DNA of 44,456 nucleotides from Escherichia phage vB_Eco_ORH_001. The position numbers were made by a program, and so were the translations under genes. The notes below the pieces were generated by a model that was given only the letters and a program-made list of their open reading frames with translations, ran no database searches and was not told where the DNA came from. Of this stretch, positions 2,074 through 43,307 are shown in pieces. The stretch's first letter is position 1. Every line of letters begins with the position of its first letter. Location: sequence record PV656001.1; one strand, written 5' to 3'.

Positions 2074-2357
2074 TGACCCCGGAAGGCAAAATACAGAAAT
2101 ACGCAAAAGAGCGATTCGAGGCCCTGGGGGGCCTCGTACGCAAATTGTCGTACGAAAATAGAGTGGGCGCGCCTGACCTCCTGGTAATTCTCCCAGGCGG
2201 CGTCGTCTGGTTCGTCGAGGTTAAGAAAGACGAAAGCACGAAGCCAGACCCGCACCAGTTACGGGAGCACGAGCGGATGCGTAAACGCGGTGCAAATGTT
2301 TTTGTCGTCGGGTCGGTCAAACAGGTTGACGACCTAATAGCTAGCTATTATAGTTAG
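2073..2357 (+). CDS. VRR-NUC domain nuclease
   Basis: GAPDLLVILPGGVVWFVEVKKDE is a PD-(D/E)xK-type signature typical of VRR-NUC. Start chosen at the ATG coupled to the upstream stop, not the ORF-track start at 1965. Confidence 0.75.
   Translation: MTPEGKIQKYAKERFEALGGLVRKLSYENRVGAPDLLVILPGGVVWFVEVKKDESTKPDPHQLREHERMRKRGANVFVVGSVKQVDDLIASYYS
2326..2354 (+). promoter_or_regulatory. strong promoter TTGACG-N17-TATAGT with perfect palindrome AATAGCTAGCTATT (2336..2349)
   Basis: Overlaps the 3' end of the VRR-NUC gene; followed by leader tacaccaacaat and the ATG at 2388. Confidence 0.6.
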
Positions 2358-2387
2358 TCCTACACCAACAATATAAGGAATTGAGAA

Positions 2388-2579
2388 ATGAAACACGAAT
2401 ATGACCGCAAGCCGGCACGTGACATCGTACCGGGCGACATGATTTTCAACGTTAAGACACGCCAGCCTGTTGCCGTTGATACAGTGTTCGTCGAGTCGAA
2501 CGGTAAACTGGTTATCGAAGATGCAACGGGTAACGTTACGGCGTTCGGGCGGAAGGAACTTGTACTGGTGGCGAAATGA
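2388..2579 (+). CDS. hypothetical protein (63 aa)
   Basis: ORF lies just downstream of promoter 2326..2354; its stop overlaps the next ATG. Confidence 0.5.
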   Translation: MKHEYDRKPARDIVPGDMIFNVKTRQPVAVDTVFVESNGKLVIEDATGNVTAFGRKELVLVAK

Positions 2580-3376
2580 ACTATTACAATGAGTGGGATA
2601 AAGGCGCAGCCGCGTGGCTGCGTGAGCTAATTAACAACAAACTAATTCCTTATGGGTATGTAGATGAACGATCAATCACAGAAGTCACCCCTTCAGATTT
2701 GGAAGGATTCACACAATGTCACTTCTTTGCCGGAATCGGAGGGTGGCCCCTTGCACTCCAGTTGGCTGGAATACCAGCAAGCACTAGACTCTGGACTGGA
2801 TCACCACCTTGCCAGCCGTTTAGCGTTGCCGGTAAGTCTCTCGGATTTGACGACGAGCGACACCTTGCCCCAGCATTTCTCAGGCTCATCAGAGAGTGCA
2901 AGCCTGAACTGCTGTTTGGAGAGCAGGTTGCGGCAGCAATTGGAAAGCACTGGCTCGATTTTGTACTCCTTAACCTGGAAGAAAAAGGCTACGCCTGCGG
3001 GTCGGCAGTATTGCCAGCGTGTAGCGTCGGTGCTCCGCATAAAAGAGACAGACTTTTCTTTGGAGCGAGCCTGTTGGCCTACCCCGAGAGCAAGAGATTA
3101 CCACACCGAGGGTGCGGGGAAGCATTCTCCGAGTTTGGCGAGGCTAGCGGAAGCGGTATCACAAAGACCATCACCTGTAACTATAAAGCCCAATGGGAAG
3201 ATTGCGACCGCATTCTATGCGCCGATAAAAAATTCCGGCCAGTTAGACCCGGATCATTCCCGCTGGCTCATGGGGTTCCCGCCAGAGTGGGACGACTGCG
3301 CGGTTACGGCAATGCCATCGTCCCGCAAGTAGCCGCTGAATTTATAAAGGCGTTCATGGGGGCGGTAAATGAGTAA
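2576..3376 (+). CDS. DNA (cytosine-5)-methyltransferase family protein
   Basis: Motif I FFAGIGGW (FxGxGG) and motif IV SPPCQPFSVAGK (PCQ catalytic Cys) are present in order; at 266 aa it is short for the family. Confidence 0.7.
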   Translation: MNYYNEWDKGAAAWLRELINNKLIPYGYVDERSITEVTPSDLEGFTQCHFFAGIGGWPLALQLAGIPASTRLWTGSPPCQPFSVAGKSLGFDDERHLAPAFLRLIRECKPELLFGEQVAAAIGKHWLDFVLLNLEEKGYACGSAVLPACSVGAPHKRDRLFFGASLLAYPESKRLPHRGCGEAFSEFGEASGSGITKTITCNYKAQWEDCDRILCADKKFRPVRPGSFPLAHGVPARVGRLRGYGNAIVPQVAAEFIKAFMGAVNE

Positions 3377-41875: not shown

Positions 41876-43122
41876 TTCTAAAAGAACGCGGTGGCAATAA
41901 TGATGTGCACGCCTTACTGTCACCGTCTGTGGCTAAAAAGTGGCTTACATGCAGTGCATCACTGGCATGCGAAAAAGATATTCCTAACACGTCAGGTAAA
42001 GCCGCCGTTACGGGGACCGCGTGTCACACCATAGCCGAGATGCACTTAAACCAGTACATCAAAGGCACTGCGTTGCCGTTAGAGCGTGAAGTCGGCGCTT
42101 ATGTGCTGGATGAGGGTAAAGGCCAGATTAAGGCGCTGATCAGCCCGATGAAAGGCGCGGTACTGATTACAGCGGACATGATTGAGCAGGTTCGCAAGTA
42201 CACCGACTACTGCAAACCAATTATAGATGTAGCTACTTACGCCAAACTGGAAATGCGCGTAAATCTCACTGAGGTGTTGCACCCTGGTTATGAAGGCGTT
42301 GAGACGTTCGGGACAGCTGACCTTGTTGCCGTTCAGGAACTGGCAAACACCGACGAGCACATGCTTATCATCGGTGACCTGAAAACTGGACGGCATCGTG
42401 TCGAAGCGAAAGAAAACAAGCAGCTTATGCTCTACGCTCTCGGTGTTTATCGCCGACTCAAGAGACGTTATAACATCACAGTAGTGCGCCTGGTCATCTT
42501 CCAGCCGTACGCGGGGGGTGCGTCAGAGTGGGACATCTCGGTCGAAGGTCTGGAACTGTTCGCTAAGTTCGCACAGAAACGGGCACTGTTAGCGCTTGAT
42601 GCTTATTTCCGTGGAAAGAAGAACCTGAAAGCGTCGGACTTTAAACCGTCGGTCGATGGTTGCCAGTGGTGCCGGTTCTCTGAACAGTGTGCCGCGCGTA
42701 CAAAGACGGTTAATTCTGTACTGGCGGAAGAACTTGAAGACGACTTTGTGCTGGAACTGACGACGGAGCAACTCGTAGTTGAGTATGAGAAGTTGCCGTT
42801 GTTGCGACAGCATATCGACAAGGTCGAAAAAGCGATGTCCGCCGCGTTGTATTCTGGTAAGAAAGTTCCGGGGTACAAACTGGTAGAAGGACGCCCAGGT
42901 AATCGTGCGTGGAAAGACGCCGATGCGATTGAAGTGTCGCACGGAGACATTCTCAAAAAAGAGGTATTGATGTCCCCTACGGAGGCGGCAAAAGTTCTTT
43001 CGGCAGATGAGATGGCAGCGCTTGAGCCATTTATCACACGTAAGCCGGGTGCACCATGTGTCGCAACGGCGGACGACAAACGTCCTGAGTGGAATCAGGT
43101 AACAGAGGAGGATTTGGAATGA
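41872..43122 (+). CDS. PD-(D/E)xK nuclease, Cas4/RecB-like with C-terminal Cys cluster
   Basis: GTADLVAV...IIGDLKTG (D...D/E-x-K) and CQWCRFSEQC; N-terminal Cys in LTCSASLAC; acidic tail TEEDLE; start at the ATGA-coupled ATG. Confidence 0.65.
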   Translation: MILKERGGNNDVHALLSPSVAKKWLTCSASLACEKDIPNTSGKAAVTGTACHTIAEMHLNQYIKGTALPLEREVGAYVLDEGKGQIKALISPMKGAVLITADMIEQVRKYTDYCKPIIDVATYAKLEMRVNLTEVLHPGYEGVETFGTADLVAVQELANTDEHMLIIGDLKTGRHRVEAKENKQLMLYALGVYRRLKRRYNITVVRLVIFQPYAGGASEWDISVEGLELFAKFAQKRALLALDAYFRGKKNLKASDFKPSVDGCQWCRFSEQCAARTKTVNSVLAEELEDDFVLELTTEQLVVEYEKLPLLRQHIDKVEKAMSAALYSGKKVPGYKLVEGRPGNRAWKDADAIEVSHGDILKKEVLMSPTEAAKVLSADEMAALEPFITRKPGAPCVATADDKRPEWNQVTEEDLE

Positions 43123-43274
43123 GCACGATTCAAGAACTGCATAAAAGCTATCTACAACAACACCGAAACGGAGCAAAGCTAGGCCGGAGCAAAGCCGTAT
43201 ACCGTGTATTCAGTATGGTAATTAGAGACGAGTCGGCAAAAATTATCCGTATGACAAAAGAAACGTTTAAATAA
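43119..43274 (+). CDS. small protein (51 aa), hypothetical
   Basis: AGGAGG RBS embedded in the upstream gene's 3' end; ATGA overlap; translation MSTIQELHKSYLQQHRNGAKLG... Confidence 0.4.
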   Translation: MSTIQELHKSYLQQHRNGAKLGRSKAVYRVFSMVIRDESAKIIRMTKETFK

Positions 43275-43278
43275 AGTG

Positions 43279-43307
43279 TTGACACCTGAATAGTTAGCTA
43301 TTATAGT
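43279..43307 (+). promoter_or_regulatory. strong promoter TTGACA-N17-TATAGT with operator AATAGTTAGCTATT (43289..43302)
   Basis: Exact consensus -35, 17-nt spacer, TATAGT -10; palindrome within the spacer. Confidence 0.65.

Follow-up and report, generated by a model that had tools for sequence, protein, structure and literature searches.

A repeated 14-bp palindrome at early and middle promoters of an Escherichia Kagunavirus: a likely operator for a small Cro-like protein

Introduction

Why should one short palindrome recur at promoter after promoter of a virulent phage, and which protein, if any, would read it? The question is raised by the 44,456-nucleotide sequence of Escherichia phage vB_Eco_ORH_001 (record PV656001.1), the whole of which is called the window here. 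The element concerned is AATAG-N4-CTATT, a 14-bp dyad (AATAGTTCGCTATT as a duplex) that a preliminary description of the DNA took for the mark of a single DNA-binding protein, naming as candidates a small XRE-family protein and an AlpA-like protein. We find that the palindrome lies on promoters of the sigma-70 type, behaves like an operator, and probably belongs to the XRE protein, a homologue of Cro from phage 434.

The window holds the entire genome of Escherichia phage vB_Eco_Hrm2 (PV656002.1, 44,455 bp), in reverse-complement orientation and rotated; its bases 1 and 44456 are the same genome position, so that it is 1 base longer than the record. Site names and coordinates are those of the window, and Hrm2 denotes the window phage in comparisons with relatives. 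Hrm2 is a member of the Guernseyvirinae, virulent siphoviruses, and within these of the Kagunavirus group. The 82 annotated coding sequences include no integrase, no RNA polymerase, and no cI-like gene. The + strand carries replication genes from 37782 to 40668 and again from 41026, through the polymerase and across the window end, to about 5410, together with a small island within the tail module (15819..17597); structural and lysis genes are on the - strand, as is a block of small open reading frames (ORFs) at 37299..34573. Non-coding DNA makes up 5.6% of the genome (about 2,500 bases). A scan of the whole window against Rfam gave 0 matches.

Among phages isolated for use against E. coli and Salmonella, in therapy or in food safety, Kagunaviruses and the related Jerseyviruses rank with the most frequent. 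There has been essentially no study of how they time their gene expression; literature searches brought up no relevant work on transcript mapping in these phages or on a Cro-like repressor from them. The repeated element itself is already known. Orthologous sequences are given as PHIRE-predicted promoters in two Kagunavirus genome papers (Golestan, Table S4; fBC-Eco01, Table S2), the second of which reports the consensus tgAATAGTa-ccTATTat-T and ascribes the sites to a phage RNA polymerase, an enzyme that none of these genomes encodes. Dyad symmetry, registers, and a candidate binder were not noted in either paper; what is new here, and computational, is the proposed reading of the sites as operators of a regulon, together with the exclusion of the AlpA-like protein.

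Occurrence of the palindrome

The palindrome is repeated over the genome. Exact copies start at 2336, 15765, 35561, 35887, 37333, 40976, and 43289, seven in all against 0.04 expected from dinucleotide shuffles, and none of 100 shuffles reached seven. When up to one mismatch was allowed, the count rose to 12 (1.27 expected) through the addition of 40932, 27132, 25503, 32749, and 38606, the last of which lies within the primase gene and is probably a chance match. An enumeration of all palindromes of the form 5-mer, gap, 5-mer genome-wide ranked AATAG-N4-CTATT first with its seven copies, followed by terminator stems with three. A repeat search returned, as the largest direct-repeat family, the class A promoter module described below (at 2326, 37323, 40922, 40966, and 43279; pattern TTGAYA-NNTG-AATAGT...CTATT-ATAKTT) and, as the top inverted pairs, the class B module (at 15745, 35548, and 37327). 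The scan against shuffled controls thus bears out the palindrome reported earlier (seven exact copies against 0.04 expected), with amendments to its list of at least eight sites: seven of these are exact and the eighth, 40932, carries one mismatch; 27132, offered as a weaker copy, is indeed a one-mismatch site; and the one-mismatch intergenic sites at 25503 and 32749 had been missed.

The copies are far from evenly spread between coding and non-coding DNA. Exact sites occur at 2.0 per kb of non-coding sequence and 0.048 per kb of coding sequence, a ratio of about 40, and five of the seven are centred in non-coding DNA (binomial P of about 1e-5). Both coding copies are at gene edges: site 2336, which precedes the next start codon by 39 nt, lies in the last 22 nt of a Holliday-junction resolvase gene, and site 37333 in the first 17 nt of a doubtful ORF with a GTG start, without a family match and with an implausible product. 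The palindrome is therefore not equally frequent inside coding regions.

Placement within sigma-70-type promoters

Most of the exact sites are embedded in one of two promoter types, and here the earlier assignment, with the palindrome in the spacer of class A and over the -10 of class B, was confirmed at the promoters named. Class A promoters (TTGACG or TTGACA-N17-TATAGT, at 2326, 40966, and 43279) score 10-11 of 12 and are among the best sigma-70-type matches of the genome; their spacer is filled by the palindrome, the last T of the palindrome also serving as the first of the -10. In class B promoters (TTGCAC-N17-TACTAT, at 15749 on the + strand and at 35590 and 37362 on the - strand), the right half of the palindrome contains the -10. 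Relative to the inferred start points, the sites extend from about -25 to -12 in class A and from about -19 to -6 in class B. Every well-placed site falls on the spacer or on the -10 of a sigma-70-type promoter, a position in which a bound protein would exclude RNA polymerase. Two leader repeats given in the preliminary description are present as quoted, in two copies each: TACACCAACAAT at 2361 and 15783, and ACGAGAGGAGAG at 41008 (+) and 35538 (-).

The placement bears directly on the published view, stated for fBC-Eco01, that the sites are promoters for a phage-encoded RNA polymerase. PHIRE did report them as 'phage RNAP promoters', but there is no RNA polymerase among the 82 annotated genes or the ORFs scanned with Pfam, and the sites are embedded in canonical sigma-70 -35/-10 pairs; we regard this view as almost certainly mistaken.

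The transcription units downstream (Table 1) support the conclusion that the palindrome marks promoters of non-structural units: replication genes, small ORFs of the host-takeover type, and the Sii/exonuclease island. The promoter of that island carries an exact palindrome, which upholds the earlier proposal that the tail-module island is tied to the regulon. The term 'early programme' used in that proposal is too narrow, since the marked units take in the whole DNA-replication module. As judged from promoter sequence, the palindrome is on nearly every strong putative early or middle promoter.

Conservation in related phages

If the sites were simply promoters, then no dedicated binder would be needed: the palindrome would be part of two duplicated promoter modules, and its symmetry would reflect -10-like hexamers on both strands. 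Several features accord with this explanation. Hexamers and leaders are part of the 30-47-nt repeats that make up the class A and class B units; read on its reverse strand, class A gives TATAAT (ACTATAATAG); the copy at 37333 can serve promoters on both strands; and the papers based on PHIRE treat the sites simply as promoters. What separates this explanation from an operator is the pattern of conservation, which was followed in 37 IMG/VR contigs with an XRE protein 78-100% identical to that of Hrm2, some site counts being given over 38 related loci; the contigs are related to each other, and the figures describe a pattern and are not to be read as a P-value.

In these contigs the minor-allele fraction was 0 to 0.02 in the half-sites, 0.05 to 0.28 in the central four bases, and 0.06 to 0.14 in the flanks. 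At site 40976 the half-sites are invariant in 38 loci, with six different central tetramers; orthologues of site 2336 in 10 related loci keep the half-sites around the centres CGAA, CTAG, CGAG, CGGG, and CACA. The least conserved site is 35887, with a half-site minor-allele fraction of 0.118 compared with 0 to 0.02 elsewhere. In Jerseyviruses (SE2 and 12 contigs) identical half-sites are found at orthologous promoters despite diverged intergenic DNA. The promoter of the Sii island is instructive: in Hrm2, 10 nt separate the -35 from the palindrome, within which the -10 lies; in SE2 the separation is 7 nt, which places the palindrome 3 bp nearer the -35, and a TATTAT -10 straddles the end of the palindrome. 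The dyad has been kept while its position relative to the polymerase contacts has moved, and it thus behaves as a separate binding site rather than as a promoter element.

Other observations point the same way. The left half-site of class A, at about -25 to -21, falls where sigma-70 requires little, yet it is invariant in 38 loci while the nearby spacer varies; the palindrome is found in three registers relative to the -10; the copy at 35887 has no -35; and duplication alone does not account for retention across genera with diverged flanks. We therefore consider it quite improbable that the palindrome is a promoter repeat with no dedicated binder. The conserved half-sites, free centre, overlap with core promoter elements, and retention across genera support a palindrome that behaves, by these comparative signs, like a protein-binding operator.

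Beyond these two genera the motif was not found. In the Cornellviruses SP-031 and Shemara it is absent (0-1 matches at up to one mismatch, about 1 being expected), and an IMG/VR scan with AATAGTANNCTATTAT gave multi-copy loci that were all Kagunavirus, Jerseyvirus, or low-GC chance matches, with no independent lineage. The two Cornellviruses have instead three conserved TATTA-N6-TAATA dyads (SP-031 at 14066, 26544, and 33280; Shemara at 38486, 8263, and 14981), two of which we take to be at promoters orthologous to those of Hrm2 15765 and 37333; the spacer of the Cornellvirus promoter beside the XRE gene reads GATTAGTTTAGTATT. These dyads may represent a shifted operator specificity, although a post hoc choice of three sites, in two related genomes, can be no more than suggestive.

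Phage EC3-1 (L044) has an extra + strand gene, gp47, inside its late head region (32544..32803), and this gene carries its own class B promoter-palindrome unit (AATAGGGTACTATT), which suggests that inserted genes bring the unit with them or acquire it.

The candidate binding protein

Pfam scans of 30 small ORFs and nearby proteins recovered only two clear DNA-binding proteins, the XRE protein and the AlpA-like HTH_17 protein (Table 1); the scans otherwise gave a sub-threshold NinH-like match at 30742..30978 (-). Wider protein searches for distant relatives of either in other contexts found close relatives only.

The XRE gene has a strong Shine-Dalgarno sequence (AAGGAG) and its own terminator (40697..40677). 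It is omitted from PV656002.1, in which an antisense ORF of 53 amino acids (aa), without a family match, is annotated instead (40725..40886, +); relatives annotate the gene as repressor or Cro. The best solved-structure match of the protein is 434 Cro, also of 71 aa (residues 6-68, E=4.9e-7), followed by 434 repressor (E=1.2e-5). It is 45% identical to the cro product of a lambdoid Klebsiella phage, whose cI-cro intergenic region contains 434-type 14-bp operators (ACAA-N6-TTGT) with the same geometry as the palindrome: the outer 4-5 bp are conserved and the centre is free. In 434 complexes Gln28 reads the outermost A of the operator; the glutamine aligned with it is conserved in all three genera compared here, and the operator in Hrm2, like that of 434, begins with A. 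Among Kagunavirus XRE variants (77-100% identity) GVSQGAINQLALG and the recognition helix are invariant while other parts of the protein vary. Two palindromes, 44 bp apart, flank the XRE promoter region, from which XRE is transcribed divergently. As a candidate regulator, XRE was soundly chosen in the preliminary description: it is a 434 Cro homologue by sequence, adjoins two sites, and is divergently transcribed.

From this convergence of homology, position, and site geometry, it appears likely that a dimeric helix-turn-helix (HTH) repressor encoded by the phage uses the palindrome as its operator, and that this repressor is most likely the 71-aa XRE protein. Some points weigh against this assignment. 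The recognition helix reads SQGAINQL in Kagunavirus and SQSLITHL in Jerseyvirus, and the half-sites are identical; the Jerseyvirus helix resembles TQSAISHL of Cornellvirus, yet Cornellviruses lack the motif. Helices and motif distribution are mismatched, and thus protein and site do not co-vary cleanly. Near-consensus promoters of the late region carry only imperfect sites. Finally, XRE would fall among the 'middle' genes, by our inferred gene mapping, in an RNA sequencing time course of the relative K1B4, which has both XRE and HTH_17; this weighs little either way, the time points being coarse.

The mismatch between helix and half-site would be accommodated by a different binder, either a host factor common to E. 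coli and Salmonella or a small phage protein not recognised as such, with XRE acting on other targets. There are many small early ORFs without detectable domains, and both phage genera infect enterobacteria with shared transcription factors. We know of no E. coli factor with an AATAG-N4-CTATT consensus, however. OxyR (ATAG-N7-CTAT) and TrpR (ACTAG-N4-CTAGT) differ from the palindrome in spacing and bases. A shared host factor is also difficult to reconcile with the Cornellviruses, which infect Salmonella too yet lack the motif, and the 14-bp geometry fits a dimer of the 434 Cro type, encoded beside two of the sites. A different binder is accordingly an outside chance.

The second protein named in the preliminary description, the AlpA-like HTH_17 protein, could in principle bind the palindrome as a MerR-like activator acting in the spacer, or as an antiterminator of the Q or AlpA type loaded between -35 and -10. 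The class A sites do lie between -35 and -10, like the AlpA binding element. Among the genera sampled, HTH_17 occurs only in the motif carriers, Kagunavirus and Jerseyvirus (between which it is 82% identical), and not in Cornellvirus; the K1B4 RNA sequencing data place it, on our inferred gene mapping, among four 'early' genes. A natural knockout nevertheless shows that the AlpA-like protein is not needed to maintain the sites: the complete circular genome of Kagunavirus ST20 has no HTH_17 homologue, and it retains an XRE protein 100% identical to that of Hrm2 and, at orthologous promoters, six exact and three one-mismatch sites. In locus L031 and in PV845598.1 the HTH_17 gene has likewise been replaced, with sites and XRE kept. 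Moreover, the putative recognition helix of HTH_17 varies among close relatives (TRQTIN, TRRTLN, TSQTIN, SPMTLS, STMTLN), the most divergent form, STMTLN, being that of EC3-1, in which the motif is unchanged. The spacers are of 17 nt with near-consensus hexamers, not of the 19-20 nt typical of MerR-type promoters. At 60 aa, HTH_17 has no dimerisation or RNA-exit-channel segment; AlpA of P. aeruginosa is much larger, with functional HTH residues up to position 142, and binds a 6-bp asymmetric element as a single molecule. We rejected the AlpA-like protein as binder on the replacements in ST20, L031, and PV845598.1 and on its variable helix, and antitermination of the AlpA or Q type on protein size, single-molecule binding, and the 6-bp asymmetric site; any role for HTH_17 at the palindrome now seems very unlikely.

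The cassette found in ST20 (L178 and L179, about 6950..7540), L031, and PV845598.1 takes the place of the AlpA-like gene and its neighbour; it encodes a 47-aa CxxC...CxxC protein and a 149-aa protein without a Pfam match.

Individual sites and their surroundings

Table 1. Palindromic sites and candidate DNA-binding proteins in the window. For the sites, the strand is that of the associated promoter element or gene.
Feature	Coordinates	Strand	Setting	Downstream or adjacent genes
Exact palindrome AATAGCTAGCTATT	2336..2349	+	In 17-nt spacer of class A TTGACG(2326)-N17-TATAGT(2354)	Upstream of 2388..2579, methyltransferase, helicase, HNH gene
Exact palindrome AATAGGATACTATT	15765..15778	+	Over -10 TACTAT 15772..15777 of class B TTGCAC(15749)-N17	Tail-module island: Sii-like protein 15819.., SbcD-like exonuclease 16050.., two small ORFs; terminator 17602..17621
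Exact palindrome	35561..35574	-	Over -10 of class B; TTGCAC 35590..35585, TACTAT 35567..35562	Upstream of 35530..34958 and following small ORFs
Exact palindrome	35887..35900	-	TACTAT on - strand, no recognisable -35; then hairpin	Between two - strand small ORFs
Exact palindrome	37333..37346	- and +	Common to two opposed promoters: - strand class B, TTGCAC 37362..37357, TACTAT 37339..37334; + strand class-A-like unit CTGATA(37323)-N17-TATATT(37351)	- strand: 37299..37114 and six further small ORFs
One-mismatch site AATAGTACCATATT	40932..40945	-	- strand reads AATATGGTACTATT; extended -10-like TGgTACTAT	31 nt upstream of XRE start codon
Exact palindrome	40976..40989	+	In spacer of class A TTGACA(40966)-N17-TATAGT(40994); divergent from XRE gene	Drives 41026.., 41603.., exonuclease
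Exact palindrome	43289..43302	+	In spacer of class A TTGACA(43279)-N17-TATAGT(43307)	Upstream of single-stranded DNA-binding protein and DNA polymerase genes
One-mismatch site	32749..32762	-	- strand reads ACTAGTTGACTATT; centre and right half form -35 of TTGACT-N17-TATATT (32757..32729), directly after strong terminator	Heads - strand small-ORF/terminase/structural region
One-mismatch site	25503..25516	-	- strand reads AATAGTTGACTTTT; TTGACT possible -35	Late region, between spanin and head genes
One-mismatch site AATAGCATACTATA	27132..27145	-	Just past terminator hairpin	About 30 nt upstream of head-morphogenesis gene start
XRE/HTH_3 protein, 71 aa	40686..40901	-	Pfam PF01381, E=1.2e-12	
AlpA-like HTH_17 protein, 60 aa	37782..37964	+	Pfam	

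The one-mismatch sites are conserved to differing extents. The mismatch at 40932 is identical in all 38 related loci, and we propose that this site is a weak autoregulatory operator of the XRE gene. At 32749 the same mismatch is present in SE2, EC3-1, and ST20. Site 25503, which adjoins an inverted arrangement (AACTATTCGAATAGTT, 25512..25527), is conserved in EC3-1 and ST20; its - strand sequence, like that of 32749, is A(A/C)TAGTTGACT, in which TTGACT is a plausible -35. Site 27132 is conserved in EC3-1 and appears as a PHIRE promoter for phage Golestan. The exact copy at 35887 may be either a weak promoter or a free-standing binding site; upstream of it on the - strand (35900..35925), relatives have one or two tandem copies of CCTGTTACACC and Hrm2 has one.

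Several structures in the neighbourhood of the sites were noted in their own right. Just downstream of the 43279 promoter, a hairpin (CCGGGcagttCCCGG, 43315..43335) lies in the leader; about 30 related contigs retain its stems but differ in the sequence and length of the loop, and it may form a stem-loop at the 5' end of the messenger RNA. Beside site 37333, about 440 bp (37340..37780) contain no convincing ORF, the annotated ORFs at 37330..37509 (GTG start) and 37597..37698 (TTG start) looking spurious; the region includes nested inverted repeats (about 37593..37630) and, on the - strand, both a near-consensus promoter (TTGAAA-18-TATAAT, 37684..37655) and a terminator-like hairpin (37455..37435), and it could encode a small RNA of about 200 nt or be an origin region beside the primase operon. 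At the end of the Sii/exonuclease island, a GC-rich hairpin resembling a bidirectional terminator (AAGGCCCC....GGGGCCTT) occupies 17589..17629; a second 41-nt copy, 83% identical, is at 5401..5441, and both close + strand units at the junction with - strand tail genes.

A proposed regulatory scheme

If XRE is the binder, the events of infection would be ordered as follows: at the start, host sigma-70 polymerase would fire the approximately eight strong, near-consensus class A and class B promoters, from which the replication module, the Sii/exonuclease island, and the small ORFs of the host-takeover type would be transcribed. XRE would be made from its own monocistronic, divergently oriented unit. 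As it accumulated, it would occupy the perfect 14-bp dyads, polymerase would be excluded, and early and middle transcription would be turned down. Finally, the imperfect site over its own extended -10 would give rise to a weaker, later autorepression. That XRE binds the sites, that it represses, and when it does so are steps that we infer. By analogy, its role would resemble that of Cro when lambdoid phages grow lytically, except that cI is lacking and the operator is found on at least eight promoters.

A more ambitious form of this scheme would make XRE a lone master timer of the 434 Cro type: early and middle transcription would be shut down through the perfect sites, late transcription gated through the imperfect -35 sites (AATAGTTGACT, at 32749 and 25503), and acquired genes such as the Sii island and the extra gene of EC3-1 enrolled by a portable promoter-operator cassette. 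That all of this holds together is, in our judgement, unlikely.

Were XRE the repressor of these sites, this would explain the early-to-late switch in a virulent siphovirus that uses the host sigma-70 polymerase and has no RNA polymerase of its own. It would also correct the published reading of the sites as phage RNA polymerase promoters, along with the annotation error by which an antisense ORF stands in place of the XRE gene, and it would provide compact, strong, repressible promoter-operator parts.

Comparison with known systems

Loading sites for AlpA and lambda Q share with class A a position between -35 and -10. The AlpA element is 6 bp long and asymmetric, is bound by one molecule of a larger protein, and needs a sigma-dependent pause; the element here is a dyad, and HTH_17 is dispensable.

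Genome-wide sets of repressor sites are known from temperate phages, among them the stoperators of mycobacteriophage L5 gp71, the conserved inverted repeats of phiC31, and the operators of P1 C1. In each, one small repressor serves many short sites, mostly intergenic and near early genes, and in this the palindrome set resembles them. Those repressors are immunity repressors that keep lysogeny, the sites of L5 and P1 are asymmetric, and stoperators act inside transcription units; Hrm2, in contrast, is virulent, and its sites are symmetric and lie on the promoters themselves.

The closest counterpart is phage 434. Unlike 434, Hrm2 lacks a cI partner and a tripartite OR/OL, and its 82 coding sequences include no lysogeny genes; its sites are dispersed over at least eight promoters of a virulent genome, AATAG takes the place of ACAA(G/T) as the half-site, Gly or Ser is found where Gln29 aligns, and binding by XRE is a prediction. 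Like 434 Cro, XRE is a 71-aa single-domain HTH_3 protein, with significant similarity over its full length; like the 434 operators, the sites are 14 bp long, begin with A, and combine conserved outer 4-5 bp with a free central 4 bp; and, as in 434, they overlap sigma-70 core elements, and the gene stands beside a divergent promoter pair with two sites. A Cro-type repressor acting on dyads that overlap promoters would be a textbook mechanism and an ordinary form of phage control.

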